The translations under genes were made by a program, and so were the position numbers. Of a stretch of DNA of 64,000 nucleotides, positions 46,694 to 63,999 are shown in pieces (the first letter of the stretch is position 1; every line of letters begins with the position of its first letter). The notes under the pieces are model-generated. The model worked only from the letters and a program-made list of their open reading frames with translations, was not told the origin of the DNA and ran no database searches. The DNA comes from Gammaproteobacteria bacterium. Lineage in GTDB: Bacteria; Pseudomonadota; Gammaproteobacteria; Xanthomonadales; Wenzhouxiangellaceae. The stretch is from positions 23,895 through 87,894 of the forward strand of contig JBJHCC010000010.1 in assembly GCA_050485825.1 (NCBI GenBank). The letters run 5' to 3'.

Positions 46694-46737
46694 GGCTTGC
46701 AGGGCGTGCACATCGTTTCTGTACGGAAGCCCACATA

Positions 46738-48564
46738 GTGAAGATACTTGAACCAGTTATCACGGTTCGGCGCGTCCTGCCGATTTTGTGGGAAAGTGCG
46801 CGCACGCTGGCGATCCTGACTGGCGTGCTGCTGTTGCTCGAGATCTCTCTTGGCCTGGCAGTGCTGTTCCTGATCAAGCAGTTGGTAGATGTTCTGACTA
46901 CGAATCTTGCGGTGGGGGGGCTGGGCACCGGGCTTGAATCGGTGCTGCGCGCAGTTGTTCTCGCGGGTTCAGCGACCCTCGCCTTGCTGATCGTTCGGGC
47001 AGCTAGTGGCTTGGCCCGGGAAGCACAGGGAATGCGGGTGGCAGACCATGTGGACAGGATGATCCACAATCGGGCGATAGCCGCGGATCTGGCCTTCTAT
47101 GAAAGTCCGCTGTATTTCGATACGCTGCAGCGAGCGCGGCAGTCAGGCAATCAGCGACCCGCCCAGGTTGTGTCCAACCTGCTGATGATGAGCAAGAACC
47201 TGATCATGCTGGTCGGGGTGATTGTCCTGCTGTCCAGCATCAGCTGGACGCTGTTACCGGTGCTACTTATCGCCATAGTACCGGCCTTGCTGGTACGCCT
47301 GTATTTCACCCGGATTCTCTATGAATGGCGAAAGCGGCGAACCCAGCTCGAGCGCCGCGCAGGCTATTTTGACTGGCTGCTTACCTCAGATCTACATGCC
47401 AAGGAGCTGCGCCTGAACCAGCTGGGTGCTGTCTTTCGGGATCTCTATTCGGATATCCGCCAGACGATCCGAAGTGAGCAATTCGGAATCAATCGTCGCC
47501 GCGCGCTCGTTGAGGGTTTGGTGGGTAGCGTGGCGACCCTCGTCTTCTTCGCCGCGCTCGCTTATCTGGCGTTCCAGACGGCTGAAGGTCGAAACACTGT
47601 TGGTGACCTCGTGCTTTTTTTGCTGATTCTGCAACGCGCCCAGGCCATGGGCCAGGAGCTGGTGGGTCAGGTTTCGAGGCTTTTTGAAGACCACCTATAC
47701 ATCAGCCAGCTGTTCGATTTTCTGGAGGTCCGGCCGCGGATTACCAGTCCCAAAAGCCCCGCTGCTCTACCCGAGGAAAAGGGCATCGAGGTCCGCCTCG
47801 AGGCCGTAGACTTCACTTATCCCGGCTGTCGAGATCAGGTCTTGAAGCAGGTCGATCTGCGCATCGCGCCGGGGCAGATCGTGGCGCTGGTCGGCTCCAA
47901 TGGTTCGGGAAAGACATCGCTGATCAAGCTTCTGTGTCGGCTCTACGATCCGAGCGCTGGCCGAGTGCTGGTCGACGGTCGGGATGCCGCGGATTACGAT
48001 CTGGAGGAGTACCGTTCGCTGTTCAGTGTGGTGTTTCAGGATTTTGCCCGCTACGCGTCTACAGTGCGGGAAAACATTCGCTTCGGCGATCTTGATTGCC
48101 CCGTCGATAGCCCGGCCATTCTCGAAGCGGCGAAACTGTCTGGGGCAGCCGACTTCATCGAGCTTTTGCCGAAAAAATATGATACTTTTCTCAATCGTTC
48201 GTTCGACGGTGGCGTGGAGCTCAGCGTCGGACAGTGGCAGAAAATCGCGCTTGCCAGGTCATTCCTGCGACCTTCACGGATCGCCATTCTGGACGAACCG
48301 ACCAGCGCGATCGATCCGAACGCGGAATTCGAACTGTTTGAGAATTTTCGGGAGCGTCTAGGGGGGCGATCGGCGCTGATCATCAGTCACCGGCTGTCGA
48401 CGATTCGCCTGGCGGACTACATTTATGTCCTTGAATCTGGGCGAATTGTTGAGGCCGGTGATCACGACGACCTGATGAGCCGCCAAGGCGTCTACTTCCA
48501 GGCCTTCAGCCGCCAGGGCAAATACTATCGGGATAAGGAAGCGCCGGCTGGAGCCGTGAGCTGA
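46738..48564 (+). CDS. ABC transporter, fused TMD+NBD (RiPP exporter type)
   Basis: GSNGSGKTS, LSVGQWQKIALAR, ILDEPTSAID. The LSxGQWQ form is typical of peptide-exporter ABCs. Start set to GTG 46738. Confidence 0.88.
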   Translation: MKILEPVITVRRVLPILWESARTLAILTGVLLLLEISLGLAVLFLIKQLVDVLTTNLAVGGLGTGLESVLRAVVLAGSATLALLIVRAASGLAREAQGMRVADHVDRMIHNRAIAADLAFYESPLYFDTLQRARQSGNQRPAQVVSNLLMMSKNLIMLVGVIVLLSSISWTLLPVLLIAIVPALLVRLYFTRILYEWRKRRTQLERRAGYFDWLLTSDLHAKELRLNQLGAVFRDLYSDIRQTIRSEQFGINRRRALVEGLVGSVATLVFFAALAYLAFQTAEGRNTVGDLVLFLLILQRAQAMGQELVGQVSRLFEDHLYISQLFDFLEVRPRITSPKSPAALPEEKGIEVRLEAVDFTYPGCRDQVLKQVDLRIAPGQIVALVGSNGSGKTSLIKLLCRLYDPSAGRVLVDGRDAADYDLEEYRSLFSVVFQDFARYASTVRENIRFGDLDCPVDSPAILEAAKLSGAADFIELLPKKYDTFLNRSFDGGVELSVGQWQKIALARSFLRPSRIAILDEPTSAIDPNAEFELFENFRERLGGRSALIISHRLSTIRLADYIYVLESGRIVEAGDHDDLMSRQGVYFQAFSRQGKYYRDKEAPAGAVS

Positions 48565-48611: not shown

Positions 48612-49496
48612 TTGATGGATTATTGTATGAAGGTGTTTGTGGGTGGTTTGGTGTCCCTCTCTCTGGCATTCGGGCTGGTGGCTGAGAACTTTGCAGGCTC
48701 ACCCGAAGCTTTTGATTTTTCGGATCGAACAGAGCTGAAGACCGGTGGTCATGTGTTGCCTCCCGCTCCGGCCGTCAGGCGCGGTCAGCCGGTGGGTGGA
48801 TTCATCGTCTGGGATAACGGAGGGTTTATCACCCATCCAGGGGCGGGTGTCGATGGTGCGGATGTCAGCATGGCCTCTGAAGATCAAAATTCCGCCGGCG
48901 ACAATGTTCGAAAGCTGGAAAATAATGCCTATTTCCGAATCGCCGACCGGTTCGAGCTTTCGCAAAAGACCGGCCTGCTCACTCTGTCCACGTTCGGCTA
49001 CGAGCCCTTTGTGGCGCCACCAACGTGGACGTCCCGCAACCTCAGGATCTGGGCCGGGGTGCCTGGTGAACCAGGCAGCGAGGTTTTGTTTGAGCGGGAG
49101 TACAGCATTCTTGACGTTCAGTTCACTGGCGTCTATCGAGTGCTTCATCTCGAAAATCTTGATGATGTTCGGAGGCCGATCTATGAAATCTCCTGGGACT
49201 TGGCTGTGGCTGACAGCGCAGCTCCGCTGTGGCTAGAGGAAGGAGAGTACTGGATTGACTGGCAGGTCGTCGGCGGCGTAACCGGTTGGGCGATTTATGT
49301 CATGCAAGCCAATCCAGAGGATCCCGACTATCCGGTTACGCCTTTGGGAGATGCGCTGCAGTTGCGGCCGATCGGCTGGACTGCGAATGAGGTGTCGACA
49401 CCCTTTTTGCTGTTCGGCCTATCCGAGACGCTTTTCCAGGATCGATTCGAGGGGCTTGAACCGCCGGAGGCCAATGAGGAGTTTGTGGCCCCTTGA
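48612..49496 (+). CDS. Secreted beta-rich protein with C-terminal LFQDRFE motif
   Basis: Signal-like N-terminus (LVSLSLAFGLVA); near-terminal ETLFQDRFE. Confidence 0.55.
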   Translation: MMDYCMKVFVGGLVSLSLAFGLVAENFAGSPEAFDFSDRTELKTGGHVLPPAPAVRRGQPVGGFIVWDNGGFITHPGAGVDGADVSMASEDQNSAGDNVRKLENNAYFRIADRFELSQKTGLLTLSTFGYEPFVAPPTWTSRNLRIWAGVPGEPGSEVLFEREYSILDVQFTGVYRVLHLENLDDVRRPIYEISWDLAVADSAAPLWLEEGEYWIDWQVVGGVTGWAIYVMQANPEDPDYPVTPLGDALQLRPIGWTANEVSTPFLLFGLSETLFQDRFEGLEPPEANEEFVAP

Positions 49497-50410
49497 AGCA
49501 TTGGTTTAGTTGCTTCGGCCTCCTTGTGGCCAGCGACCTTGATCTGCGCGGTCAACCGGTTTCGCCAGGCCAGCCTGATTTGGCGCTCCGAGTCCAGCGA
49601 ATCCGGGATAAGCCCGCGCCAAGTCCGACTCAGCAGTGGGGGCGCGATCAGGCAAGGCAATCGAGTTGGGCGCTTTGCCCGGGGATTGCTCGTGTCGAGG
49701 CACATGACAGCGGTGATGTGCTGATCGAGGTGGATGAGGATCTTGATTCGGATAGTCTGCGCTTCGTAGCTGTCACAATTGCATTGCCCCTGGCGCTTCA
49801 GCAGCGCCCGGGATTGATGCTGGAGGCCAGTGCGGTTCGTTGGCACGGGCAGGTGCTGATCATCTGCGGTCGGGGGTACTGCGGCAAGTCGACTCTCGCC
49901 GCCTTGATGGCTGATTTGGGCGCTGAATTGCTGGCGGATTCGCACTGCTTGCTGACCCAAGGTGAATCGGGTGAACTGCTGCTGGGACCAGCTCTTCCAC
50001 ATGTCCGCCTTTGGCCTGCTCAATCGCAGCTGCTTGGGACTGAGTGGCCAGCGCCAGTCACACTCCGCCCCGGGCTTGGCAAGCGCCTGTTTGTCGTTCC
50101 GGAGCGCTTCGCCGCAGATCCCTCGCCCGTTAGCGGACTGATCGTTCTGCGCCGAGGTGTAGACGCCCAATTCAGGCACCATCGCCTCCCTGTTACCGAA
50201 TGCCTCCAGGCTCTGGCCGCGGCCGGCAGTCGTCTAGTCTGCTCTGTAACCCCGGCTCAGACTGCGCTTCGCTTCAGAATCATGACAAAGCTGGCGGCGC
50301 TTCCAATCTGTCACCTCCTGCAATGGCCGCGATGGGGTCAGAATGAACTCGAAACGCGTTCGAGGCTGCTGGAACTGCTGGCTGAGCAGGATTGGGGCGT
50401 TACGGCGTGA
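49493..50410 (+). CDS. HPr-kinase-related protein, degenerate active site
   Basis: LEASAV (usually LHASAV), GRGYCGKSTL Walker A, LLADS (usually DD). Confidence 0.75.
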   Translation: MKHWFSCFGLLVASDLDLRGQPVSPGQPDLALRVQRIRDKPAPSPTQQWGRDQARQSSWALCPGIARVEAHDSGDVLIEVDEDLDSDSLRFVAVTIALPLALQQRPGLMLEASAVRWHGQVLIICGRGYCGKSTLAALMADLGAELLADSHCLLTQGESGELLLGPALPHVRLWPAQSQLLGTEWPAPVTLRPGLGKRLFVVPERFAADPSPVSGLIVLRRGVDAQFRHHRLPVTECLQALAAAGSRLVCSVTPAQTALRFRIMTKLAALPICHLLQWPRWGQNELETRSRLLELLAEQDWGVTA

Positions 50411-51267
50411 TGGTCTTCGGCGCATTGATCTGGCTGGCCTCTTACCCGAAGTCGGGCAATACCTGGATGCGGGTCGTCCTCGGCGCGCTCCTGTTCGGTC
50501 GGGCGCGAGCTGGCGCGACCGACATCAACGAGTTGGAAATCATTGATCATGCCGGGAATCGGGGGCTGATTGAAGCCATTTCTGCCTGTCCGTCCTCGGA
50601 GTTGCACGCCGACGAGATCAATCATTTGCGTCCCGCTGGCTTCAGGCTCCTCGCCGAAAATCGGTCGGGGCTCAGCGTTGTCAAGGTTCATGATGCCTAT
50701 CGGACTCGGAGCGGCTTGGCGTCACCGTTCCCGACGGATGTGTCCGCCCAGGTCATCTACATTGTCCGGAATCCACTTGATGTCTCGGTCTCGTTGGCCG
50801 CTCATCTGGGCGTTAGCCTTGATGAGGCCATCGCAATCATGGATGACGACTTTATCCTCGGCCCCGAGGAGTCTGCCTTGGGTCCTCAGCTTCCTCAGCA
50901 TCTTGGAAGTTGGTCGGATCATGTCCGTAGCTGGACGGCCCAGGACGATTTCCCGATACAGGTCGTTCGCTACGAAGATATGATTCGCGATATCAAGGCG
51001 GAGCTGGTGCGCATCGTGAAGATGCTAGGGCTGCCGGCCACTTCGGATGATGTTTTGGCCGCAGCTGCGGCCGGTGACTTCGATCGACTTCAGCTGGCCG
51101 AGAGTCAGGCCGGTTTTCGTGAAAAACCCGCCAGCCTCAAGGGACGTTTCTTTCGCTCAGGTCGGGCAGGGGGCTGGAGAGAGATCTTGTCCAGTGGGCA
51201 AGTCGACCGCTTGACGGAGCGCCATTCTGACATGATGGATCAATTTGGCTATCTTGGTGCTTCTTGA
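50407..51267 (+). CDS. PAPS-dependent sulfotransferase
   Basis: IWLASYPKSGNTW, VKVH, YIVRNPLDVSVS, GSWSDH, RYED, FFRSG..GGW. Confidence 0.92.
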   Translation: MMVFGALIWLASYPKSGNTWMRVVLGALLFGRARAGATDINELEIIDHAGNRGLIEAISACPSSELHADEINHLRPAGFRLLAENRSGLSVVKVHDAYRTRSGLASPFPTDVSAQVIYIVRNPLDVSVSLAAHLGVSLDEAIAIMDDDFILGPEESALGPQLPQHLGSWSDHVRSWTAQDDFPIQVVRYEDMIRDIKAELVRIVKMLGLPATSDDVLAAAAAGDFDRLQLAESQAGFREKPASLKGRFFRSGRAGGWREILSSGQVDRLTERHSDMMDQFGYLGAS

Positions 51268-51314
51268 TTGGCAGAGCAGTCAGACATCCTGACTTTTGAT
51301 TGGGGAATATCGTA

Positions 51315-51596
51315 ATGAGGACGAAAAGAGTGTTGCGGACCGGAAATGTTCTATCCCACTCGATCGACGGGGAAACCGTCATCCTGAATCTAGATAACGA
51401 GAAATATTTCACCCTGGACACGGTCGGCACAAGATTCTGGGAGGTCATACTTGAGCATGGCGATGGCAAGGAGGCTGTCGATATCCTGCTAGAGGAGTAT
51501 GACGTCGACCGGACAACGCTGGTCGCGGACATGCAACGCTGGGTCGAGGAAGTCATCGAGCTTGGACTGCTAGTACCGACCGCTGAGGACGGCTGA
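51315..51596 (+). CDS. Lasso B1 / PqqD-like RiPP recognition element
   Basis: DGETVILNLDNEKYFTLDTVGTRFWE...EEYDVD...LGLL. Confidence 0.92.
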   Translation: MRTKRVLRTGNVLSHSIDGETVILNLDNEKYFTLDTVGTRFWEVILEHGDGKEAVDILLEEYDVDRTTLVADMQRWVEEVIELGLLVPTAEDG

Positions 51597-51693: not shown

Positions 51694-52131
51694 GTGAGAC
51701 GCCTGCGCTGGGCGCTGTATCTGAGCTTGGCATGGGTCGGCCTGCGACTGATTCGCTCGATGCTGAGGATTTTGGGCTATCGAAGGACCGTTCGGCTGCT
51801 GGCATGGCTCTCGCCAACTCCGAAACGATCGGGTTACACGAGGAGCATGCGGGTTGCTGCAAGTGCGATCGAGCGCGTGGATGGCTGGTGGCCAAGGCAG
51901 CCCCGCGGATGTCTGCGACGCTCCCTACTGTTCTGGTGGCTGTTTCGATGGTTGGGATACAGCAGCGAGATTCGAACGGGGGTGCGACGGGATGGCGCTG
52001 AAATCGAGCTCCACGCCTGGGTTGAGAGTCGCGGCTTGATCCTGAATGACCGGGCTGGAAAGGTCAGCCAGTACACAGTCCTTTGGGAGGATATTTCTTC
52101 GGCAGTCGTGGAGTCTGGGGGTAGACGGTGA
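51694..52131 (+). CDS. Lasso B2 leader peptidase (transglutaminase-like)
   Basis: GCLRRSL (catalytic Cys), GVRR, LHAWVE (catalytic His). Confidence 0.92.
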   Translation: MRRLRWALYLSLAWVGLRLIRSMLRILGYRRTVRLLAWLSPTPKRSGYTRSMRVAASAIERVDGWWPRQPRGCLRRSLLFWWLFRWLGYSSEIRTGVRRDGAEIELHAWVESRGLILNDRAGKVSQYTVLWEDISSAVVESGGRR

Positions 52132-53981
52132 GCGCCTTTGTGGCGGTTGTTCATTTTGATGACGCACCTGTTGACTCCAAGCTTGTTCAGGGGCTGGCAA
52201 ATATAGTAGCGTACCGAGGACCCGACGCCAGCGCGGTCTATTGCTCTGGTGCATTGGGTTTGGCGCATCACCTGATGCGCGTGACGCGATCCTGTGCGGA
52301 GGATGCACAACCGCTGGTATCCACTGCTGGTCAGTTTGCGCTTGTCTGCGATGCGCGGTTTGATCAGCGGCGCCTTTTGATCAATGCGCTGCGGGGTCAC
52401 GGGGTTGTTGTTTCGGAAAGATCTCCCAACTCGAGACTGCTGCTTGAAGCCTTGCAGCTTTGGGGGGAAGCGGCTCTTGACAGGATCAAGGGTGACTATT
52501 CCTTTGTGTTTTTTGATCAAGCTCGGCGGCGTGTCATTGCCGCCGTCGATCCTTTTGGACTGCGCACACTTTTCTACGGAACTTTTGAGAATGGACTGGT
52601 GATCAGTAATGATCCATTGCCAGTCCTGGCTCATCCAGCGCTTGATGTTGCTTTGGATCGAACAGCTTTGGCAGACTTTCTGATGACCGGTCGAGTGGGG
52701 GGAATTGACCCTGCGGCTACGCCCTTTCGATTGGTCCGGCAGCTGGTAGGGGGGCATCGAATCAGGCTCGACGTGGACTCAGGCAAGACCGACATTCGTC
52801 GGCACTGGCAGTTTCCGATACAAAGCAAGGCGCTCTATTACAGTTCCCTTGAGGACTACGGCGAGCACTTCCGCTGTGTTTTGAAGGAGGCTGTCAGCGA
52901 CCGCATTGACGCGCCGTCGGTAGTGGCCCCGATGAGCGGTGGGATGGACTCGACCACCGTGGTCGTCACGGCAGCCGAGCTCATAGCCGGTGGTTCTGGG
53001 CCGGATCTCTTCACCGCGGTAACGGCGGTGCAGCATGATCAAGACCCTGAGGGCCTGCTGGCCGCTGAGGTTTGTAGAGCGGCAGGTGTTCCCCATCATA
53101 AAATTGTCGCCAGCCCTGGTAGACCCTTGGCTGCTTGGCGGTGCATGCCGTTTCCGGCGACTGATTTTTTTGACCTATACGAGAACAACCAAAGAGTTTC
53201 GTCCCAGTTTGGTCGCCTGAGCATTAATGCCAGCAGCGCAGATTATGCGCTGTGCCCAGAGCCTTTCAGCATCTTGGGTCAGCTGCGCGCCTCAGGTCTG
53301 AGGGATACCTGGCGTGCTCTAAGGATCATGAAGTCCCAGTACCGGTTTCGTCCTCGGTTTGGGTCCGGGCTTTATTCCTGGTTAAGGCGAACACCGATCG
53401 TCAACCCATACACTCGGCCGCCGTATCCTTACCCGGACTGGTTGTCATCGGATCTTGAGCGGGATTTGGAGCTTCGGGAGCGCTGGGCTGCGCACTGGTC
53501 ACGCTGGCCTTCACCCCAGCACCCATTGCGGCCCACTGCCCATCGAATGATTACTGCAAAGGGGCGCCTCAGCATGCATTCGGTCGGTTGGCCCCTGGAT
53601 TTTGCCTTGCCGGCTCCAGCTGACCCGTTTCTGGACCAGCGCATGATCGAGTTTCTTTGGTCGCTCCCCCCTCTTCCCTGGTTCTATGACAAGCACTTGA
53701 CCCGGACTGCGATGCGAGGCTGGCTACCTGATTCGGTCGTTGATCGTCCGAAGACTCCAGCCCGTCGGTGGCTGCCATCCGCAACCCGTGACGGCGTAGA
53801 TTTTTCCTGGGACCCCGGTGGCTTGATCCTTGAGCTAGTCGACCGATCTCGGCTCAGGGAGCTTAACGACGACGGTGCCTCGGCGGCAGACTTCCACCCC
53901 ATGTTTCTGAATCGGTGGCTGACCTCCTTTGAGGCAGTTTTTGAGCAAATGACGGGGAAAAAGTGCCAACTCACTGTTTAA
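52128..53981 (+). CDS. Lasso cyclase C (asparagine synthase-like)
   Basis: MSGGMDST PP-loop, PFLDQRMIEF, K..RTAM..WLP..V..RPK; no N-terminal catalytic Cys; coupled to B2. Confidence 0.9.
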   Translation: MSAFVAVVHFDDAPVDSKLVQGLANIVAYRGPDASAVYCSGALGLAHHLMRVTRSCAEDAQPLVSTAGQFALVCDARFDQRRLLINALRGHGVVVSERSPNSRLLLEALQLWGEAALDRIKGDYSFVFFDQARRRVIAAVDPFGLRTLFYGTFENGLVISNDPLPVLAHPALDVALDRTALADFLMTGRVGGIDPAATPFRLVRQLVGGHRIRLDVDSGKTDIRRHWQFPIQSKALYYSSLEDYGEHFRCVLKEAVSDRIDAPSVVAPMSGGMDSTTVVVTAAELIAGGSGPDLFTAVTAVQHDQDPEGLLAAEVCRAAGVPHHKIVASPGRPLAAWRCMPFPATDFFDLYENNQRVSSQFGRLSINASSADYALCPEPFSILGQLRASGLRDTWRALRIMKSQYRFRPRFGSGLYSWLRRTPIVNPYTRPPYPYPDWLSSDLERDLELRERWAAHWSRWPSPQHPLRPTAHRMITAKGRLSMHSVGWPLDFALPAPADPFLDQRMIEFLWSLPPLPWFYDKHLTRTAMRGWLPDSVVDRPKTPARRWLPSATRDGVDFSWDPGGLILELVDRSRLRELNDDGASAADFHPMFLNRWLTSFEAVFEQMTGKKCQLTV

Positions 53982-54364: not shown

Positions 54365-55324
54365 TCAAGCGATAGGGGATAGGCGCTTTCGGAATGATGA
54401 TTGATCAAATTGGCAAATCACCGACCCGTGCTTATCGCTCACTTCGCCTTTCCATTGCCATAGATAGGTCTGGTTAGTCCAGTGCGCATGAATTTGCGCC
54501 TCAATTTGGAAGCCTGGTCGAACCTCAATTGCGTGGGGCAGTGGCATAAATGCCTGTCCGTAGATCAGTTCCGGTTCAGCCGGATGGTTTGAAAACCCGA
54601 CCCCTGGAGCAAGCTCCGCATCAAACCATGTGGCAAGCCCATGAAGCAGGCCCGAACGCTTGATCTCCCAAGACATCAGGCCATGGGCGCTGGGTTCTGT
54701 GACGTTGTGGTAGTCGATAGTTAGCCAGTGCTGCGCTTCGCTTAGCATTTGCTCCGGCCGCAGTCTAACCTTGCTCCATCGATTGATCTCGAAATCGGCG
54801 CCCGCGGCTAAGTCCAGTCCGAACGGGTTGATTCGCCAGGGCTCTGTAACTCTGCGATACTCCTCAGGGTGCTCGACTGGAGCCGAGTATAGGTTGTCGC
54901 GGCGGCCAATCAGAATGCCGTCGGGTGCAAGCAGCCGTTCTCTGGCGTCGATGATGCTGGGAATATGTTGCGAGTAGAGTGGAAGAACGCTACGCAAATC
55001 AGAGATGATGACGTTGGCCGAGGTGTCAAGTTCAAGATTACTGGAGACGCCTTCGATGCAGCTCACTCGATCCTGCATGTCGTTTTGCTGAACAAGTCTT
55101 TTCGCCAGTCTGATCGACGGGTTGCATTCAACCGCTATGACCTGTCGGGCCCCCATACGTGCTGCCAGCATGGCAAAAACGCCCGGGCCGGCACCAATTT
55201 CCAGCACTAGATCGCCTGGCTTTATCAGCTTCTGCATGGCAGCCAGGTAGGCCTCCACGCGGGGCTGGTTCAGCACCATGTGACCGAAATGAGTCAGCGT
55301 GTAGCCCGGATCGTGCATATCCAT
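54365..55324 (-). CDS. PRMT-like SAM methyltransferase
   Basis: HMVLNQPRVEAY, VLEIGAGPG, AVECN, then a beta-barrel half (HGLATWFDAEL). Start ATG 55324 after a TAAGG SD. Confidence 0.78.
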   Translation of the reverse strand: MDMHDPGYTLTHFGHMVLNQPRVEAYLAAMQKLIKPGDLVLEIGAGPGVFAMLAARMGARQVIAVECNPSIRLAKRLVQQNDMQDRVSCIEGVSSNLELDTSANVIISDLRSVLPLYSQHIPSIIDARERLLAPDGILIGRRDNLYSAPVEHPEEYRRVTEPWRINPFGLDLAAGADFEINRWSKVRLRPEQMLSEAQHWLTIDYHNVTEPSAHGLMSWEIKRSGLLHGLATWFDAELAPGVGFSNHPAEPELIYGQAFMPLPHAIEVRPGFQIEAQIHAHWTNQTYLWQWKGEVSDKHGSVICQFDQSSFRKRLSPIA

Positions 55325-55326
55325 CC

Positions 55327-56355
55327 TTAAACGTTGGGCTGGAGCGAAAGCGCCTGGCAGAGTTCGCGCGCGCTGGAATCCAGCGTAGATAGCTCCCATG
55401 GCCTGCGGTATTCATAGACCTCTATTTGGCGGGCGATCCGGCCACCAAAGTCGTGAAGTCGAGTTTGGTCGAAATACAACTGGCACAAGGCAGGTCGGTA
55501 GATCGAGTGCATGAATGCCCGGTAGGCGCCTATGCCCCGAATGCGTCGGATTGTTGCCGGCTGATCAGGCTCGCCTCGTGTCAGGATGACGAGCTTCGTC
55601 AATGGCGCAGGTTGATTATGAGAGCCAGACTTCTGCCGTATGTGGAACTTGTCTTCACGGGCCAGATCGCGGCTGAGTCCAGATTTGCTCAGCCCTAGGG
55701 CGTCGAGCGCGCTGGTCCATAGCTTAAGTCGGGGCGGTCCAGGATGCAGCAAGGGATCCGGATCCTCAGGCCTCAGTACGGCAAGATCGTCGCTGACCAG
55801 TGAAAATCCCAGCCGATAATGAAGATAGGCTATAAGCGTTGATTTCCCGGCGCCGGATGGGCCCGTGAACGCCACAGCGCCGTCACCGGTCCTGATGGCA
55901 CTGACGTGTATCGGCAACTGTTGCCGTTGGTGAAGAAGCGCCCCGAGCACCGTGCCGAGCAAATAGGTTCTGACGTCACCTTCCGCCGCTCGTGTCTCCG
56001 CAGTGGTCTGGTCGCGCCGATCCACCGTAATTGTTCTGCCGTCTTCTACAAGGTACCGGGCCACATTGGGGCTTCCAACAATGCATTGTCGAGCGTTAAA
56101 CAGAAGCCACGGCGCGCCCGCGCGACCATTTGGCAGCGTGGTAGGCACCTCGCCAAGGATAATCTCTACGACGTCCTCTTCTTCCGGCTCCGGATGTGAC
56201 GGGCTCAGTTCAGGGATTTCGAGCTGCGATCGTATCGTAAGTCCGCATGTCCGATACACGTGCCACACGGGCTGTCGACTGCGCTTGCCGCGCCTCTCAA
56301 TGGGGCGCGACTCGCGTCCTTCGCTATTGGTCCCGGACGCGGCTATGCTGTTCAT
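55327..56355 (-). CDS. HPr-kinase-related (PadeK-like) kinase, intact motifs
   Basis: IHVSAI, FTGPSGAGKSTL, LVSDD, PRLKLW. Confidence 0.87.
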   Translation of the reverse strand: MNSIAASGTNSEGRESRPIERRGKRSRQPVWHVYRTCGLTIRSQLEIPELSPSHPEPEEEDVVEIILGEVPTTLPNGRAGAPWLLFNARQCIVGSPNVARYLVEDGRTITVDRRDQTTAETRAAEGDVRTYLLGTVLGALLHQRQQLPIHVSAIRTGDGAVAFTGPSGAGKSTLIAYLHYRLGFSLVSDDLAVLRPEDPDPLLHPGPPRLKLWTSALDALGLSKSGLSRDLAREDKFHIRQKSGSHNQPAPLTKLVILTRGEPDQPATIRRIRGIGAYRAFMHSIYRPALCQLYFDQTRLHDFGGRIARQIEVYEYRRPWELSTLDSSARELCQALSLQPNV

Positions 56356-56545: not shown

Positions 56546-57811
56546 GTGGCTAGGCGAATTCTTTCCGTAATGTCCGGCTTACAATCCTCGACCACCCTCG
56601 GCGTCTCTGCCGATTCGATATTGCAGCGTGCATTCGAGTTGACGCTGTCCATACAGGGCGAGAAAGTGGTCCTCCTGGCCGGCGGCCGGTTTGCCAGCGT
56701 GAGCGCGCATACGCTGGCCATTCTTGATGCATTCGCGACTCCCAAAACCCTGGCGGCCGGCCTCCAGCAGCTTTCTTGCCGATCAAGAGGCTTGCGGGAC
56801 TGGATTCGGCTTAACAACCAGGTTTTAGCGCTAGTTCAGGCCGGGATCCTCGTTGAACCGGATAGCCGCGATGTGCTTTTCCCGTCTCATTCCGGCAGTT
56901 TTTCGAGCCCGGATATTCACATCCGGATGCTCAATGATCAGGTCCGCACCTTGGCATATCAGCAGGCGCTTCGGGAAGTTGTGCGGCCCGGTGACGTGGT
57001 AGTGGATGTCGGGACTGGCACCGGGGTGCTTGCGGCATCCGCTGCGCTTGCGGGGGCTCGGCAGGTCTACGCAGTGGAGCGGACCGGGAATATGCCCAAG
57101 CTCGCTCGGGAGTTTTTCCGGGCGAACGGTCTGGATGGCAGAATTACGTTGATAGAAGGTGACTCTACCGGTGTTCAGTTGCCGGAGCCGGCCGATGTGA
57201 TGGTCAGCGAGATTATCGGAAACGACCCGCTGGCCGAGGGGATAGTTTCAACTACTGCAGATGCGCGCCGAAGGTTGCTGGCAAGCAAGGCCCGGATCAT
57301 CCCCTCTGTGTTGCGGCTTTATGCGCTGCCGTTGACTGCCCCGGACGCGCTCTACCAACAGGCGGTCTTTACGGTCGACCAGGCCGAGAATTGGCGGAAC
57401 CGCTATGGGCTTGATTTTTCAGGATTCGTCGCTGATTGCTCCGCCAGGACCTTCACGACGACAGTCAACACTGCGCGGGTCAAGGCGTGGCCGCGGCTGG
57501 CAGCGCCCATTCTCTTGGAGTCGATTGATTTGGCCGAAGCAACGGTTGAGGCGATCGAAGTGACGCGCGAGTTTGCCGTCGAAGCTTCAGGTCAAATCAA
57601 CTGTATTGTCTTGTACTTCGAGGCTCAGCTCTCGCCTGCGGTTTGTTTGTCCGTTCATCCGGATCACGCCGATGCGGCGAACAGCTGGGCCAGTTGGGCT
57701 TGGTTGCCCGGCCAACCCTTGGCGGTCCGAGCCGGGCAGCGCATGCGGTTGAACTATCGCTTCGACGTGCGCAATAAGTCCTCCATGCTCCTCAGCGAGT
57801 TCCTGCCCTGA
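56546..57811 (+). CDS. PRMT-like methyltransferase with N-terminal RRE/wHTH-like domain
   Basis: HIRMLNDQVRTLAY, VVDVGTGTG, double-E loop VSEIIGNDPLAEG; N-terminal three-strand/three-helix pattern ending LVQAGILVE. Confidence 0.8.
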   Translation: MARRILSVMSGLQSSTTLGVSADSILQRAFELTLSIQGEKVVLLAGGRFASVSAHTLAILDAFATPKTLAAGLQQLSCRSRGLRDWIRLNNQVLALVQAGILVEPDSRDVLFPSHSGSFSSPDIHIRMLNDQVRTLAYQQALREVVRPGDVVVDVGTGTGVLAASAALAGARQVYAVERTGNMPKLAREFFRANGLDGRITLIEGDSTGVQLPEPADVMVSEIIGNDPLAEGIVSTTADARRRLLASKARIIPSVLRLYALPLTAPDALYQQAVFTVDQAENWRNRYGLDFSGFVADCSARTFTTTVNTARVKAWPRLAAPILLESIDLAEATVEAIEVTREFAVEASGQINCIVLYFEAQLSPAVCLSVHPDHADAANSWASWAWLPGQPLAVRAGQRMRLNYRFDVRNKSSMLLSEFLP

Positions 57812-58533: not shown

Positions 58534-59784
58534 ATGTTGAATTTTGAGTGTGGTTTGGTCCTGCGTAGGCGTCGCCGCTCTTCCTTGGCGCTGGTGGTTT
58601 TTCTCATTTTTTCAGTTGGTTGGACGAGTAACGCTGCGGCCAATCCGGCCTTCGATCAGTTCCTGGCCAGCGCCGGTGAGTGGCTGGAGGCTCGACAGCT
58701 GCCAAGCGGCGCTTTCCCCTACTCGGAAGCGGATCCGACAGTTTTTCCCAGTGTCCAGTCGGTTTCTGGCCTGGCGATGCTGGCTGCCTATGAGGCCACT
58801 TGCCGCCTTGGCAACTGCAATACCGACTTTCTGGACTCGGCGGTTTTGGCCGGCGATTACATGATCGGGGGCGGCTTTGGTAATTTTTCACCTAACACAG
58901 GCCTTCCACGTATTCGGACGTTTGACCCGCTGCTTTTGGTGCGCCTGTCAGAGGCAACTGGGGATCCCCAGTACGCCGACTTTATCCAGGTGAACTTCTG
59001 GCAGCGTCTGGAAGACGGCATCTACGGGCCGCAGAACAATTGGGATATCGACGACTATGTAGCCTCCGAACTCGCTCGTCGCGCGGGTGCCCCGAGCACC
59101 GGGCCGATCGTGGCCGCCTGGGACTTGGCTCTGATAGCAGCTGCCGCCCGGGAAGCAGGTATCAACCAGTTCAATGCCTCGCTGGCCGTCGGCGCCAGCA
59201 CGGCCCTGGAGTCTGCTACCGACGCCGGGACCTCGATCGGCGCGAGCGGCTTTGATGTTCTGGGCTTGACCGGTGCAGTGTGGATGGGCGCATTGACTGG
59301 CCTCTCGACCGTGCCGGGCTCTGGTCCCTGGTCGGGCGTTGCCGGGAATTCGGGGCTTGCCAGCCTGCTGATGCAGTACCAAGGCCCGCAGGGTGGGTTC
59401 CTGCAGAGTTCGGCGGCCGGCTCTTCTCCTGTTCAGGATGTGGATACAGTTAGCCAGAATACTGCTTTTGCAATTGTGGGGCTCCATCAGTTGAATCGCG
59501 TCGCCTATGGCCACTCGATTCTGCGGGGTCAGGAGGCGCTGGTTGAGGTCTTCCAGGAGCCCAGTGGGCGAGTCAACTACTATCATCCGGACGTTGATCT
59601 GAGCTCGGTGGCTGATCCCAAGCCTTACTTGCATGTCCACGCCTATGCGTTGTTCGCCTTGGCCGACACCCGCGACCTGCCGGATCCGGCCCCGGTTCCG
59701 GTCAATGATTGGCGCCTGCTTTCGCTGCTGGCGCTGCTGATGCTGGTGCTCGGCTGGACGGGCTTGGTGGTTCGCCGGCAGTAG
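58534..59784 (+). CDS. Exported alpha/alpha-barrel-like protein with IPTL-CTERM-like C-terminal anchor
   Basis: Signal peptide; Q..SGAF / Q.PQGGF QW-like repeats; tail PVPVNDWRLLSLLALLMLVLGWTGLVVRRQ. Confidence 0.6.
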   Translation: MLNFECGLVLRRRRRSSLALVVFLIFSVGWTSNAAANPAFDQFLASAGEWLEARQLPSGAFPYSEADPTVFPSVQSVSGLAMLAAYEATCRLGNCNTDFLDSAVLAGDYMIGGGFGNFSPNTGLPRIRTFDPLLLVRLSEATGDPQYADFIQVNFWQRLEDGIYGPQNNWDIDDYVASELARRAGAPSTGPIVAAWDLALIAAAAREAGINQFNASLAVGASTALESATDAGTSIGASGFDVLGLTGAVWMGALTGLSTVPGSGPWSGVAGNSGLASLLMQYQGPQGGFLQSSAAGSSPVQDVDTVSQNTAFAIVGLHQLNRVAYGHSILRGQEALVEVFQEPSGRVNYYHPDVDLSSVADPKPYLHVHAYALFALADTRDLPDPAPVPVNDWRLLSLLALLMLVLGWTGLVVRRQ

Positions 59785-59955: not shown

Positions 59956-60615
59956 ATGCAGCGTTTTTTTGACATCGTGTTCTCGGCGCTGGCGCTGTTG
60001 GTTCTGGCGCCCCTGCTGGTTCCTATTGTTGTTCTGCTGCGCCTGACCGGGGAGGGCGAGGTTTTTTTCGGTCAGCTGCGGATAGGGCAGGGCGGTCGGC
60101 CGTTTCGCCTGCTGAAGTTCGCGACCATGCTCAAGGACAGCCCCAATCTCGGGACGGGCACCCTGACCGTCAAGAACGACCCGCGGGTGCTGCCGATGGG
60201 GCGATTCCTGCGCAAGACCAAGCTCAATGAACTGCCGCAGCTGATCAATATCCTCGCCGGCGACATGAGCGTGATTGGGCCCCGGCCGCAGACTCAGCGC
60301 TGCTTTGACGCGTTTCCGGCACGTTCTCAGATGGAGATCATCAAGGTCCGGCCGGGCTTGTCCGGGATCGGGTCGATCGTGTTTCGCGACGAAGAGGAGC
60401 TGATGGCCCATGCCCGCGACCCCGACGCCTACTATGACCAGGTGGTCATGCCCTACAAAGGGCGGCTGGAAGAGTGGTTCGTCGCCCGTCGCTCTCTTTA
60501 TGTGTATTTCGCCCTGATTGCCTTGACGGTCTGGGTGATTCTGTTTCCCAACAGCGAAGCGGTGTTCCGGGTTTTCCCGGACTTGCCCCCGCGCCCCCCC
60601 GAGATGGACGGGTGA
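59956..60615 (+). CDS. Priming phosphoglycosyltransferase (Bac_transf, PglC/WcaJ-like)
   Basis: RFFD, FRLLKFATM, FLRKTKLNELPQL.N...GDMSVIGPRP, RPGLSG. Confidence 0.92.
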   Translation: MQRFFDIVFSALALLVLAPLLVPIVVLLRLTGEGEVFFGQLRIGQGGRPFRLLKFATMLKDSPNLGTGTLTVKNDPRVLPMGRFLRKTKLNELPQLINILAGDMSVIGPRPQTQRCFDAFPARSQMEIIKVRPGLSGIGSIVFRDEEELMAHARDPDAYYDQVVMPYKGRLEEWFVARRSLYVYFALIALTVWVILFPNSEAVFRVFPDLPPRPPEMDG

Positions 60616-60668
60616 GGCAAATCCCTCGCCGGTGGCGCGATCCTCGTTCGACGGAAACCGTCGGTCGA

Positions 60669-60995
60669 GTATGTCGGCCCTACGCGGCTGACGGACCATG
60701 TGTGCCGCAACCCGATATCGTCCGTCGGGGACGTGGCCCCGACCTACTCGGTGCCAGTCGATGCCGCAGAGAATTCATTGGGCGCGGTTTACGTAGGTCG
60801 GCCCCACGTGGCCGACGGACCGTGTATGCCGAAGCCCGATATCGTCCGTCGGGGACGTGGCCCCGACCAACTCGGTGCCGGTCGATACCTCGGAGCATTC
60901 ATTGGGCGCGGTTTGCGTAGGTCGGCCCCACGCGGCCGACGGACCAGGATTGCCGAAGCCCCACATCTTCCGTCGGGGACGTGGCCCCGACCGAC
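60669..60995. repeat. REP array 3: three pairs, 124-bp period
   Basis: Units at 60669 (degenerate), 60793 and 60917. Confidence 0.9.
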
Positions 60996-61085
60996 TCGGT
61001 GTCGGTCGATGAATCGGAGATCTGGTTGGGCCGGGTTTGGGTGGGATCCCGGCCTGCCACGTCGCCCGTATTCGGGTGATCTGAT

Positions 61086-61856
61086 TTGAACGCCGCCCTT
61101 CGCGCCCTGCGCCGTCTGGTCTATCCGCTGGGTTTCAGCAGCCTGTTAATTGGCTCGGGTGCTTTGCTGTGGCTGCTTCGATGGCGGCGTGTCGGGCCGA
61201 TGCTGGTGTTTGCTGGTCTAACCGCCCTGTGGTTGTTTTCGACGCCTATGTTCGCCAACCAGCTCGGTCTGGCGCTCGAAAGCCGCTACCCGGAGCGTCC
61301 CATACACACGCTGCCCACGGCCGAGGTCATCGTCGTGCTGGGCGGTGCGTTCAGTCATCGGGCGGGGCGGGCTCATCCTGATATGAGCGGATCGGCCGAT
61401 CGTTATTGGCATGCGGCGCGGCTGTACCACGCCGGTCGCGCCGAGCGCATCATTCTGTCCGGCGGCCGTTACCCCTGGCGTGGGCCGGGCTTGACTGGGG
61501 CGGCCGCCGGCGTCGTCTTTCTGCGTGACCTTGGCGTATCCGAGCAGGCGCTGTGGCTGGACGATCAGGCACTATCGACGCGCGAGAACGCGGTCAATGT
61601 TGCTGCCATGCTCGCAGACGAGGGTTTGGACACCATCTTGCTGGTGACCTCCGCATCGCACATGCCGCGCTCGATGGGCGCCTTCCGCGCGCTCGGGCTG
61701 GAGCCGATTCCGGTGCCCACGGATTTTCGCCACGAGCGCCTGTGCCCGCGCGCGTCCGTGAACTGGCTGCCCAGCGCGGATGCGCTGGCGTTGAGCACGC
61801 GCGCAGTCCATGAATATGTCGGGTGGTGGCTGTATGCCCGCCGCGGTTGGATCTGA
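61086..61856 (+). CDS. YdcF/DUF218 (ElyC/SanA-like) envelope protein
   Basis: IVVLGG, IILSGG, STRENA, LVTSASHMPRS, P.PTDF, EYVG. Confidence 0.9.
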   Translation: MNAALRALRRLVYPLGFSSLLIGSGALLWLLRWRRVGPMLVFAGLTALWLFSTPMFANQLGLALESRYPERPIHTLPTAEVIVVLGGAFSHRAGRAHPDMSGSADRYWHAARLYHAGRAERIILSGGRYPWRGPGLTGAAAGVVFLRDLGVSEQALWLDDQALSTRENAVNVAAMLADEGLDTILLVTSASHMPRSMGAFRALGLEPIPVPTDFRHERLCPRASVNWLPSADALALSTRAVHEYVGWWLYARRGWI

Positions 61857-62919
61857 GGGCCGCGCCGAGTTGAACCGGCCGCTGGATGACAGTCTGGCCG
61901 AGCTGCGCGGCGCTTCCGAGCGGCTGCACTGGTTGAGCGAGCATCGCCTGCTTGGCGTCGCTGGCATGCTGTCCGAGCGCGGTCAGATGTCCCGAGATCT
62001 GGCCGTTCTCGCGGAACGACTGGTCAGCGCCAGACCGATGGTGCCTGATATTCAGCTTGCCAATGAGGTTTCAGTACTCTGTGCGCTTCGGGACAACGCC
62101 GTCCCGGCGCTGGCACTAAAGGGCTGCTTGCTGGCGCACGCGGTCTACCCGGCTCCGAACCGCCGCTGGCGCGCCGACCTCGACGTGCTGGTCGCGCCCG
62201 AGGCCGTGGCCTCCGCGCGGGTTACCCTCACTGAACTCGGGTTTCGACCGTTATGGACGGTGCCCGGAGGGACGCCGATGGACCAGGAGTCCTGGCTGCT
62301 GGGGCAGGGTGCCTCTCGCCAGGTGGTCGATTTGCATTGGGATCTACGCAATCATCCCGTACTGCGGCGGCGCTTGTCATTTGCAGAGCAGTGGGCCGCG
62401 GCGATTGAGCTGCCCTCGCTGGGCGTTGGCATCAAGGGCCAGGGGCCGGTGCACGCGCTGTTGAGCGCCGCGATGCACTGGTTTGATGATCTCTACAATC
62501 AGCCGCGTCCGCTGGGCTGGCTGCTGGATATCGATCTGCTTTGGCGTCGCCTCGATTCTCAGTCGCAGGCTGAAATGATCGATCTGGCGGGCGAGCGGGA
62601 GTTGGCCGGGCTGGTCGCCGAATGCCTCCGTATGGCACGCGCGGTGTTCGCAACCCCGATCAGTACGGATGCGATCGAGTCCCTGGCTGCCGTGGGGGGG
62701 CGCCAAAAACCAACTAGACTGATCCAGGCTGGTCGCGGTCCATACCGGGCCTGGTGGTTTGCGCTCAACAGCGAGCCTGGCCTGGCCGGAAAGCTGCATC
62801 GGCTACGCGCCAGCCTGCTGCCGCCGGTCGCCCATTTGCGCGAGCGCTATCCGAAGGGTTCGCGTCTCGGTTTGCCCGGACTGTATCTGAGGCGCCTGAT
62901 TAAGCGCATGCGTCGTTGA
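61810..62919 (+). CDS. Nucleotidyltransferase family protein (NTP_transf_5-like); start uncertain
   Basis: LALKGCLLAHAVYP.PNRRWRADLDVLV, VDLHW, LGWLLDI. Confidence 0.83.
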   Translation: MNMSGGGCMPAAVGSEGRAELNRPLDDSLAELRGASERLHWLSEHRLLGVAGMLSERGQMSRDLAVLAERLVSARPMVPDIQLANEVSVLCALRDNAVPALALKGCLLAHAVYPAPNRRWRADLDVLVAPEAVASARVTLTELGFRPLWTVPGGTPMDQESWLLGQGASRQVVDLHWDLRNHPVLRRRLSFAEQWAAAIELPSLGVGIKGQGPVHALLSAAMHWFDDLYNQPRPLGWLLDIDLLWRRLDSQSQAEMIDLAGERELAGLVAECLRMARAVFATPISTDAIESLAAVGGRQKPTRLIQAGRGPYRAWWFALNSEPGLAGKLHRLRASLLPPVAHLRERYPKGSRLGLPGLYLRRLIKRMRR

Positions 62920-62954
62920 CCAGGGAAGGCTTCGGCCGAGCCCGGCCCATTCGG

Positions 62955-63227
62955 GTAGGTCGGCCCCACGCGGCCGACGGACCATGTGTGCCGCAACCCG
63001 ATATCGTCCGTCGGGGACGTGGCCCCGACCTACTCGGTGCCGGTCGATACCTCGGAGAATTCATTGGGTGCGGTTTGCGTAGGTCGGTCCCACGCGGCCG
63101 ACGGACCATGCCTGCCGAAGCCCCGCATCGTCCGTCGGGGACGTGGCCCCGACCTACTCGGTGCCGGTCGATGCCGCAGAGAATTCATTGGGCTCGATTG
63201 GCGTAGGTCGGCCCCACGCGGCCGACG
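62955..63227. repeat. REP array 4: two pairs plus one single
   Basis: Units at 62955, 63079 and 63203, between convergent genes. Confidence 0.9.
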
Positions 63228-63306
63228 GACCATGCCTGCCGAAGTCCCCAAGGTCAAAGGTCTGCGCCCGGACAGGCTACCGGTCTCGGTCTGCCGGGGG
63301 CAGATC

Positions 63307-63999
63307 TCACAGCGGTTTCAGCAATTGCTTGAGCGTCCGGCCAGGCTGCTCAACAAGGTCAATGCCGGTTTCGATGACCTGGGCGGGTGATGTTGCCAGC
63401 AAGCCCTGGAGCATGGCCATCAAAGCCTGCCGTTCATGGGGGAAATGTTTTGAGAACAGGATTGGCATTCCGGCCTTGATCAGCTCGGCCAGGGCCAGAT
63501 GCGGCGGCAAGTGTTCCATGGTGCTGGCCGGCGGGCGCCCGGCCCGGGGCCGGCGCAGCAGCCAGATGCGGTGGATGGGGCTGCTGATGGGAAAGCGCGG
63601 ATTGTCCTCCGGTATCCGCAGTACGCACTTTGTAGACTTGGCGCCCTTCGCCAGTGGCCAATCAGCCGCCAGGCGATCCGTTGCCCAGCCTGACCGAAAC
63701 ATCAGAAATCCGCGCAGGCGCTCGGCCGCAAAGCCGGCCTCGGTCGCGCCGGCCAGCACCCAGTCATCGCTGACCACCTTTGCCCCGCCGGTCAGGGCGG
63801 CTGCCGTCAGTACAGATTTGCCACTGCCGCGTCCTCCCAATGCCAGCACCCCCAGGCCGTCAACGCGGATCACCGCGGCATGCAGCGTCATCAGGCCAAG
63901 GCGCGCCCATTGCTGGGCTAGGAGCAAGTTGAGGGACTGCGGGATCAGCAGATGGCTGGGTCGGCGATGATGGGCTTCCAGCTGCAGCGCGCCGGCAGC
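63307..63999 (-). CDS. HPr-kinase-related protein (partial, runs off right edge)
   Basis: LHAAVI, GGRGSGKS, VVSDD; frame stays open to the window edge. Confidence 0.75.
   Translation of the reverse strand, partial: AAGALQLEAHHRRPSHLLIPQSLNLLLAQQWARLGLMTLHAAVIRVDGLGVLALGGRGSGKSVLTAAALTGGAKVVSDDWVLAGATEAGFAAERLRGFLMFRSGWATDRLAADWPLAKGAKSTKCVLRIPEDNPRFPISSPIHRIWLLRRPRAGRPPASTMEHLPPHLALAELIKAGMPILFSKHFPHERQALMAMLQGLLATSPAQVIETGIDLVEQPGRTLKQLLKPL

Follow-up and report, generated by a model that had tools for sequence, protein, structure and literature searches.

What does an enzyme resembling the protein arginine methyltransferases (PRMTs) do in a bacterial gene cluster for a lasso peptide, and which residue does it modify? 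This question was raised by a two-domain methyltransferase, denoted MT1, whose gene lies in a 64,000-nucleotide stretch (hereafter, the window) of contig JBJHCC010000010.1 (positions 23,895–87,894; assembly GCA_050485825.1) from a gammaproteobacterium of the family Wenzhouxiangellaceae. A first-pass annotation of this DNA described MT1 as a PRMT-fold methyltransferase apparently fused to its own recognition element (RRE) for peptides that are made on ribosomes and modified after translation (RiPPs), which would act on a precursor encoded nearby. The analysis reported here identified the catalytic core as a PRMT fold and suggests that MT1 may be a leader-docking tailoring enzyme that methylates arginine 14 (R14) of the core peptide in a heavily decorated, paeninodin-like lasso pathway. 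Judged from sequence comparison, this assignment has about an even chance of being correct.

PRMT Fold and Active-Site Motifs of MT1

The open reading frame (ORF) annotated for MT1 was present in the ORF list (Table 1), and the motifs quoted for it, HIRMLNDQVR, VVDVGTGTG, SEIIGNDPLAE, and NSW, were all found in the translation. The public gene call P0001 gives the identical protein with the start at ATG 56570 (413 residues), and the residues of MT1 are numbered from this methionine. A convincing Shine-Dalgarno sequence was found upstream of neither GTG 56546 nor ATG 56570; the conserved LQR motif sits about 10–17 residues after the start in MT1 homologues. An AlphaFold2 model of the full-length protein, which was built on 72 homologues, gave a predicted local distance difference test (pLDDT) score of 94 and a predicted template modelling (pTM) score of 0.89.

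The core of MT1 is laid out as an αY helix carrying HIRMLNDQVR, a Rossmann domain, and a β-barrel with a helical arm. A phmmer search of the PDB sequences with MT1 gave 107 matches, and each of the 60 listed belongs to the protein arginine methyltransferases. The best match was PRMT7 of Trypanosoma brucei (TbPRMT7), which was aligned over residues 122–373 with an E-value of 5.7e-26. The Pfam model PRMT_C, representing the β-barrel or "oligomerisation" subdomain, scored 31.8 bits against a gathering score of 27. When the MT1 model was compared with the PDB using Foldseek, PRMT7, PRMT6, CARM1, PRMT1, and PRMT3 were retrieved with E-values of about 1e-25 and target-normalised template modelling (TM) scores of 0.74–0.83. 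The PRMT identity of the core is far beyond chance, and the PRMT-like core of the first-pass annotation was hence borne out by the sequence search, the Pfam score, and the structural comparison.

Alignment with TbPRMT7 placed HIRMLNDQVR against HYAMMNDEERN and VVDVGTGTG against VLEIGAGSG. The double-E loop SEIIGNDPLAE aligned with SEIFGTMMLGE at identical spacing, and the gap between its two glutamates, E214 and E223, is eight residues, as in PRMT1 and PRMT7. In PRMTs, the glutamates of this loop hold the guanidinium group. Residues H117, L121, D123, R126, G148, G152, E170, E214, E223, and W373 are invariant in the 72 homologues (35–76% identity), as are D142–V144 of motif I. Among them, E170 is the post-I acidic residue of the class I Rossmann site for S-adenosylmethionine (SAM), and W373 is the tryptophan of the THW-loop equivalent, whose first two positions vary among relatives (NSW, NHW, SSW, and CSW). 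PRMT5 deviates at the THW loop as well (FSW). These checks indicate that MT1 has the whole PRMT motif set apart from the THW loop, where NSW is found instead.

The fold of MT1 is common to the eukaryotic enzymes PRMT1, PRMT3, PRMT6, CARM1, and TbPRMT7 (TM up to 0.83), and so are HxxMLxDxxR, motif I, the post-I glutamate, the double-E spacing, the helical-arm barrel, and the THW-loop tryptophan. In contrast, the identity to these enzymes is 22–26%, and NSW stands where they have THW. MT1 is predicted to be targeted by an N-terminal RRE-type domain, whereas the eukaryotic PRMTs are targeted by SH3, zinc-finger, or PH-like modules. The MT1 gene is moreover bacterial, accessory, and located inside a biosynthetic cluster.

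RRE-Type Fold of the N-Terminal Domain

In the models, the N-terminal domain of MT1 is built of four short β-strands and then three helices, with LVQAGILV at the end of the third helix. The first-pass annotation had read this region as three strands and three helices ending in LVQAGILVE; the helices and the RRE-like fold were reproduced, whereas the model has one strand more. The same fold was obtained when the domain was modelled alone with AlphaFold from an 18-sequence alignment (pLDDT 87). A Foldseek search of the PDB with this isolated domain returned RRE-carrying RiPP proteins at ranks 1–37 and 39–42. The leader-bound lasso B1 protein TbiB1 was at rank 1 (TM 0.56/0.65), and the other matches included MccB, ThcOx, PqqD, TigE, McbB, MibB, BmdC, the lasso B1 protein 6jx3, the PbtF RRE, and LynD, and then CteB, TglI, and MadB. 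The E-values are modest (from 7e-3) because the domain has only 80 residues with 12–18% identity to its matches, and it is the specificity of the list that counts. An hhalign comparison of the domain profile with seven B1/PqqD proteins taken from the lasso clusters of this study gave a probability of 79.5% and an E-value of 1.5e-5, colinear over 91 columns.

Sequence search alone does not identify an RRE in this domain. A Pfam scan of 18 N-terminal domains at E-values up to 10 gave no match, PqqD (PF05402) included, and an hmmsearch of the PDB sequences with the domain profile gave no RRE match, returning weak unrelated ones (a designed binder and the helix-turn-helix of RcsB). BLASTP against B1 of the same cluster aligned a single 12-residue patch only. 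The domain is nonetheless conserved in about 230 relatives, in which F55 is invariant and L18, L49, L52, W78, L88, G92, and L94 are kept in at least 90%. Its profile matched 495 clusters at 50% identity among 1.84 billion representatives, and nearly all full-length matches are about 400 residues long with the domain at the N-terminus.

The lasso B1/PqqD RREs (TbiB1, FusE, and PqqD) have the same winged-helix fold, composed of a β-sheet and three helices, and the LxxxGxL motif of the terminal helix is common to both. The domain of MT1 differs from them in an extra N-terminal strand and the absence of a PF05402 match, and it is fused to a methyltransferase, whereas the B1/PqqD RREs are discrete or fused to B2. 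A domain that is neither an RRE nor a winged helix would have spoken against the first-pass annotation; a winged helix with RRE proteins as structural neighbours was found. According to the models, the N-terminal domain is of the RRE-type fold, and it is predicted to be a leader-binding module.

Loop Classes and TsaG/TvaG-Type Relatives

The same two-domain layout was encountered outside the lasso peptides. A thioamitide-like cluster of Streptosporangium sp. CA-135522 (locus L043, 2147–11227) encodes a YcaO protein, a HopA1-type lyase, two APH-type kinases, a flavoprotein decarboxylase, a papain-like protease, and a 77-residue precursor ending in VTPATHC (8031–8264, reverse strand), together with a methyltransferase that is about 36% identical to MT1. 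A search with this methyltransferase recovered proteins of Streptomyces olivoviridis and Streptomyces sp. NRRL S-4. The former species is the producer of thioviridamide, and the latter strain is the producer of thiostreptamide S4. From the strain names and the Pfam family, we infer P0170 to be TsaG and P0177 to be TvaG. MT1 aligned with the S. olivoviridis protein from end to end, through the N-terminal domain as well, at 33% identity across 396 residues (E 6e-56).

TsaG is known to act late, after macrocyclisation; its deletion abolishes the histidine bis-N-methylation of thiostreptamide S4, and its predicted structural homology to PRMTs was noted in the same paper. The fold alone therefore does not dictate an arginine acceptor. 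Furthermore, the fusion of an RRE-like domain to a PRMT fold is not unprecedented, because proteins of the TsaG/TvaG type, as identified above, share it. Both domains of the fusion described in the first-pass annotation were recovered by Foldseek and phmmer. As a separate observation, the deposited gene model of P0170 (Streptomyces sp. NRRL S-4, 372 residues) begins midway through the N-terminal domain, with the alignment opening at MLKLGQSALGLLD, and its relatives have approximately 35 more residues; its start codon was probably mis-called in the record.

The two groups of enzymes differ at the double-E loop, which reads T-D-[IL]-V-G-N-E-x-L-D-M in the thioamitide proteins and S-E-I-I-G-N-D-P-L-A-E in MT1. 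The first glutamate is hence replaced by aspartate and the second by methionine. The 235 family members fall into the loop classes E/E (168), D/M (65, to which the L043 enzyme belongs), and D/L (2), and both glutamates are kept in 168/168 members of the MT1 clade. In a FastTree phylogeny of 96 sampled members (408 columns including the two loop columns; SH-like support), a single change, on a branch supported at 99%, is enough to separate the E/E class from the D/M–D/L classes. TsaG and TvaG are RiPP tailoring enzymes that have a PRMT-like fold and the domain layout of MT1, and they differ from it in RiPP class (a YcaO/HopA1/APH/flavoprotein thioamitide cluster against a lasso cluster), in their loops (TD...LDM with SHW against SE...E with NSW), and in forming a separate clade. 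Unlike the histidine-methylated substrate of TsaG, the core peptide predicted for MT1 has no histidine.

Lasso Cluster and Its Recurrence

Pfam and NCBIfam searches revealed that the window holds a complete paeninodin-like lasso system, composed of B1, B2, C, the precursor, and an HprK-related kinase (Table 1). The precursor has the leader MKKEYSTPKIAALGQHADLVA, which contains a YxxPxI motif and valine at −2. Its core, predicted to start at Ala22, reads AGGASSDVDGVFYRDGEKFASFGTDPKTPPVS and ends in a serine, which in paeninodin-type pathways is the site of kinase phosphorylation (PMC8498205). The core boundary was set by the published leader spacing of lasso precursors, Y(-17)/P(-14)/L(-12) (PMC10368454). 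The neighbouring precursor with one arginine, on which the first-pass annotation had relied, was found to carry this residue at predicted core position 14.

About eighteen loci with full-length relatives of MT1 were fetched from genomes and metagenomes, and in about 9 of them, from several phyla, the MT1 homologue has a lasso context. Lasso genes flank it in L081, L083/84, L002 (Pyrinomonadaceae), L003 (Plectonema), L087, L088 (Cyclobacteriaceae), L094, and L096. The flanking set consists of B1, B2, or C, usually with a kinase, a sulfotransferase, and a nucleotidyltransferase. These lasso-associated homologues come from Acidobacteriota, Cyanobacteria, Bacteroidota, and metagenomes. L081 and L096 are syntenic with the window and carry the same genes for NTP_transf_5, ATP-grasp, and the ABC exporter. 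The gene order in L083/84 is PqqD, C, precursor, and MT1, and the MT1 homologue directly follows the precursor in L083 and L096. In L010, a kinase, a nucleotidyltransferase, and a lasso-like precursor adjoin it.

A different arrangement was observed in L086, where a discrete PqqD gene comes after that of the MT1 homologue, with three glycosyltransferase-PqqD fusions and a sulfotransferase nearby. This locus encodes a 116-residue peptide (15418–15768, reverse strand) with GGGRGRGHCDHGRGRGRGH and poly-Thr tracts, whose repeats GGGRGRGH...GRGRGRGH resemble the Gly-Arg-rich motif of PRMT substrates. No lasso cyclase was found within 10 kb, and L086 may represent a different system for a glycosylated, arginine-methylated peptide.

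Arginine as the Candidate Acceptor

An arginine occurs in 10/10 of the predicted cores next to E/E-type enzymes; the ten core boundaries are our own predictions, and the loci are related rather than independent. R14-D15 is kept in the AGG-type cores of the window, L081, and L096, of which the enzymes are only 42–71% identical. Elsewhere, the arginine is found as R13-E14 in L094, as R6 in a GGxxxRxD ring in L083 and L010, and as R7-D8 in L087. Lysine is absent from 6/10 of these linked cores and histidine from 9/10. Since the α-amine is used for isopeptide ring closure, and neither lysine nor histidine occurs in all cores, arginine alone among the nitrogen nucleophiles is present in every one of them, which makes its methylation the best reading. 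The strongest argument for an arginine acceptor at the level of sequence is the retention of both glutamates in the MT1 clade together with their joint loss in the histidine clade. Methylation of the precursor arginine by MT1 is therefore favoured, though held with no more confidence than doubt.

Proposed Role of MT1 and Competing Explanations

In the proposed pathway, the RRE-type domain of MT1 would bind the linear 53-residue precursor at its YxxPxI leader, as the discrete B1 of the cluster does. The PRMT core would then use SAM to methylate a guanidino nitrogen of R14, the presumed acceptor, with E214 and E223 of the double-E loop keeping this residue in place. This step would precede the removal of the leader by B2 and the ring closure by C. 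There is a precedent for this order in the lasso kinases, C-terminal methyltransferase, epimerase, and hydroxylase, which act on linear precursors (PMC8498205). The degree of methylation (mono, symmetric di, or asymmetric di) is not readable from the sequence.

Several observations weigh against this pathway. The THW loop of MT1 is kept only in part. The enrichment of arginine, 10/10 against 2/4 in the clusters having MT2 (a second PRMT-fold methyltransferase, described below) only, is not significant (Fisher p about 0.07), with loci that are not independent and core boundaries that are predicted, and the position of the arginine varies in distant clusters (ring 5–7 or loop 13–14). The nearest studied relatives, the inferred TsaG and TvaG, share the architecture of MT1 yet are linked to histidine methylation. 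A second RRE, that of B1, already serves the same leader, and RRE-like folds can be vestigial, as suspected for ThcOx. Finally, about half of the examined E/E-clade members lie outside any recognisable RiPP cluster; no recognisable RiPP genes were present within 8–10 kb at L085, L095, L097, the P0105 locus, L001, and L004.

Some of these points suit an enzyme of the same architecture acting on the same precursor, of which the acceptor is not arginine but Lys18, Lys28, a backbone or side-chain nitrogen, a carboxylate, or phospho-Ser. The requirement for TsaG in histidine bis-N-methylation is consistent with it, as are the alteration of the THW loop to NSW and the paralogue MT2, which shows within the same cluster that this fold can accommodate a remodelled acceptor loop. 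This explanation is rather unlikely, as the MT1 clade keeps both guanidinium-binding glutamates without exception while the histidine clade has lost both, and the cores offer neither a histidine in the window nor a lysine in most linked clusters.

Somewhat less likely again is a leader-independent methyltransferase, specific for arginine or another residue, in which the RRE-like domain is vestigial or structural and which acts on the threaded, mature lasso peptide like the aspartimide-forming LihM. Certain lasso modifications are not made until the peptide has been threaded (PMC13352647), TsaG works after macrocyclisation, B1 is a dedicated RRE of the cluster, and the N-terminal domain has no Pfam PqqD match. 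Against this stand the strong conservation of the domain with its invariant F55, its best structural match to a B1 protein with bound leader, and the action of the characterised lasso kinases, C-terminal methyltransferase, and epimerase on the linear precursor (PMC8498205).

It is improbable that MT1 is not a RiPP enzyme at all, but an arginine methyltransferase for a cellular or secreted protein whose N-terminal domain is a protein- or nucleic-acid-binding module and whose position in the lasso cluster is incidental or tied to the surrounding glycan locus. The E/E-clade loci that are devoid of RiPP genes could be so explained, and polysaccharide genes (Polysacc_synt_2, Bac_transf, and DUF218) indeed surround the cluster in the window. 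The lasso association, however, was found repeatedly in unrelated phyla, and in two loci the gene comes immediately after the precursor; the structural neighbours of the N-terminal domain are RRE proteins, not DNA-binding winged helices. In addition, the MT1 gene is missing from 23/24 genomes searched within the genus of the window, one of which has a weak partial match, so that it behaves as accessory DNA that travels with the accessory cluster.

The identification of MT1 as PrmA, suggested by the name "50S ribosomal protein L11 methyltransferase" that NCBI gives to many homologues and by a Pfam PrmA match (E 4.7e-10) that, like those of generic methyltransferase models, is restricted to the Rossmann part, is effectively refuted by an NCBIfam prmA (TIGR00406) score of 33.3 bits against a cut-off of 183, by the genuine PrmA of the same genome (246 bits) on another contig, and by the PRMT-type β-barrel. 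This recurrent database label is wrong for MT1 and is corrected here; no NCBIfam model was found for the MT1 family.

Relation to Known Lasso Modifications

The lasso modifications described in reviews up to mid-2026 are the C-terminal methyl ester, hydroxylation, epimerisation, citrullination, phosphorylation, glycosylation, acetylation, prenylation, aspartimide, and a second isopeptide; these lists do not include arginine methylation (PMC8498205, PMC13352647). In the literature searched, no paper was found to connect PRMT-type arginine methylation with lasso peptides or RiPPs, and there was nothing relevant on lasso methylarginine or a bacterial double-E loop. The accessible part of a 2025 structure-based census of RRE fusions reports carbamoyl- and glycosyl-transferases, Memo-like proteins, and DUF59 proteins, and that part mentions no PRMT-like fusion. 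StspM, a lassomycin-type C-terminal O-methyltransferase, and the aspartimide-forming enzymes of the LihM/PIMT type are SAM-dependent tailoring enzymes in lasso clusters, as MT1 is predicted to be. They belong to other methyltransferase families and methylate carboxylates, and the reviews consulted describe them without the PRMT β-barrel, double-E loop, or RRE domain that characterise MT1. Compared with the RiPP methyltransferases of the TsaG/TvaG type, what is new in MT1 is the lasso association, the intact double-E loop, and the predicted arginine acceptor.

A broader proposal is slightly more doubtful than the role suggested for MT1 itself. The E/E clade may represent widespread bacterial peptidyl-arginine N-methyltransferases that are guided by a leader, producing Nω-methylarginine as a modification new to lasso peptides and to RiPPs. 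The clade would then be a prokaryotic sister group of the eukaryotic PRMTs with their full catalytic motif set, in which the swap from E/E to D/M accompanied a switch from arginine to histidine. If this is correct, arginine methylation would join the lasso-peptide toolbox, and a compact, portable, leader-directed arginine methyltransferase would become available for peptide engineering. The E/E and D/M clades offer a natural pair in which the retuning of a PRMT active site from guanidine to imidazole can be studied. The family also shows that enzymes of the PRMT type with complete motifs occur commonly in the accessory genomes of bacteria, a finding relevant to the origin of the eukaryotic PRMTs.

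Other Features of the Window

The positions of MT1, its parts, and the genes of the lasso cluster are collected in Table 1.

Table 1. Location of MT1 and of the lasso cluster genes in the 64,000-nucleotide window.
Feature	Position	Strand	Basis
NTP_transf_5 nucleotidyltransferase	44210-45439	+	Pfam
Sugar-transfer ATP-grasp	45455-46693	+	Pfam
ABC exporter	46606-48564	+	Pfam
Gene without assigned function, between ABC exporter and HprK-related protein	48612-49496		
Second HprK-related protein	49493-50410	+	NCBIfam HprK_rel_A, weak
PAPS-type sulfotransferase	50392-51267	+	Pfam Sulfotransfer_1, E 4e-21
Lasso B1, discrete PqqD-family RRE	51300-51596	+	Pfam PqqD, E 1.4e-13; best NCBIfam, lasso PqqD chaperone models
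Lasso B2 leader peptidase	51694-52131	+	Pfam Transglut_core3; NCBIfam lasso_biosyn_B2, 68 bits against cut-off 33
Lasso cyclase C, asparagine-synthetase-like	52128-53981	+	Pfam Asn_synthase, GATase_7; best NCBIfam, lasso isopeptide cyclase
Lasso precursor, 53 residues	54109-54270	+	ORF; weak NCBIfam lasso_cyano match
MT2, second PRMT-fold methyltransferase	54365-55399	-	Pfam PRMT_C, 30.1 bits
HprK-related kinase, candidate for C-terminal Ser, divergent from MT1	55327-56355	-	Weak NCBIfam HprK_rel_A and P-loop matches
MT1, two-domain methyltransferase	56546-57811	+	ORF list; 421 residues from GTG 56546, 413 from ATG 56570
MT1 RRE-like (PqqD-like winged-helix) domain, residues 17-95	56618-56854	+	Models, Foldseek, hhalign
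MT1 PRMT-fold catalytic core, residues 114-413	56909-57808	+	phmmer against PDB, Pfam PRMT_C, Foldseek
MT1 double-E loop SEIIGNDPLAE (E214, E223)	57206-57238	+	Translation; aligned to TbPRMT7
MT1 THW-loop equivalent NSW	57680-57688	+	Translation

MT2 and the MT1 core share 31% identity (E 5e-31). MT2 has neither an RRE domain nor a double-E loop, its loop reading SDLRSVLPLYSQ, and it presumably does something other than MT1. Translation of MT2 may in fact begin slightly downstream of 55399; the MT2 homologue in L081 has 323 residues. Close homologues of MT2 (36–41% identity) were observed in lasso clusters without MT1 (L032, L034, L036, and L045), which indicates that MT2 constitutes an independent lasso tailoring family. 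Homologues of the HprK-related kinase also occur in other lasso loci.

The set of tailoring genes around the one precursor is redundant to an unusual degree. A second NTP_transf_5 gene was located at 61810–62919, and a third HprK-related protein is encoded at 63307–63999, in addition to those in Table 1. Downstream of MT1, a 416-residue protein (58534–59784, forward strand) with a signal-like N-terminal segment and a hydrophobic C-terminal tail gave no Pfam or NCBIfam match. Unannotated genes of similar length, matched by length and position alone, occupy comparable positions in L081 (414 residues) and L096 (408 residues). Two 124-bp tandem repeat arrays (60541–61086 and 62827–63372) flank the DUF218 and NTP_transf_5 genes (61086–62919). 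These arrays have 2.4–2.8 copies with 87–89% matches according to Tandem Repeats Finder (TRF), and a repeat search reported them as six overlapping 298-nucleotide copies; spurious ORFs arising from them recur in the ORF list.

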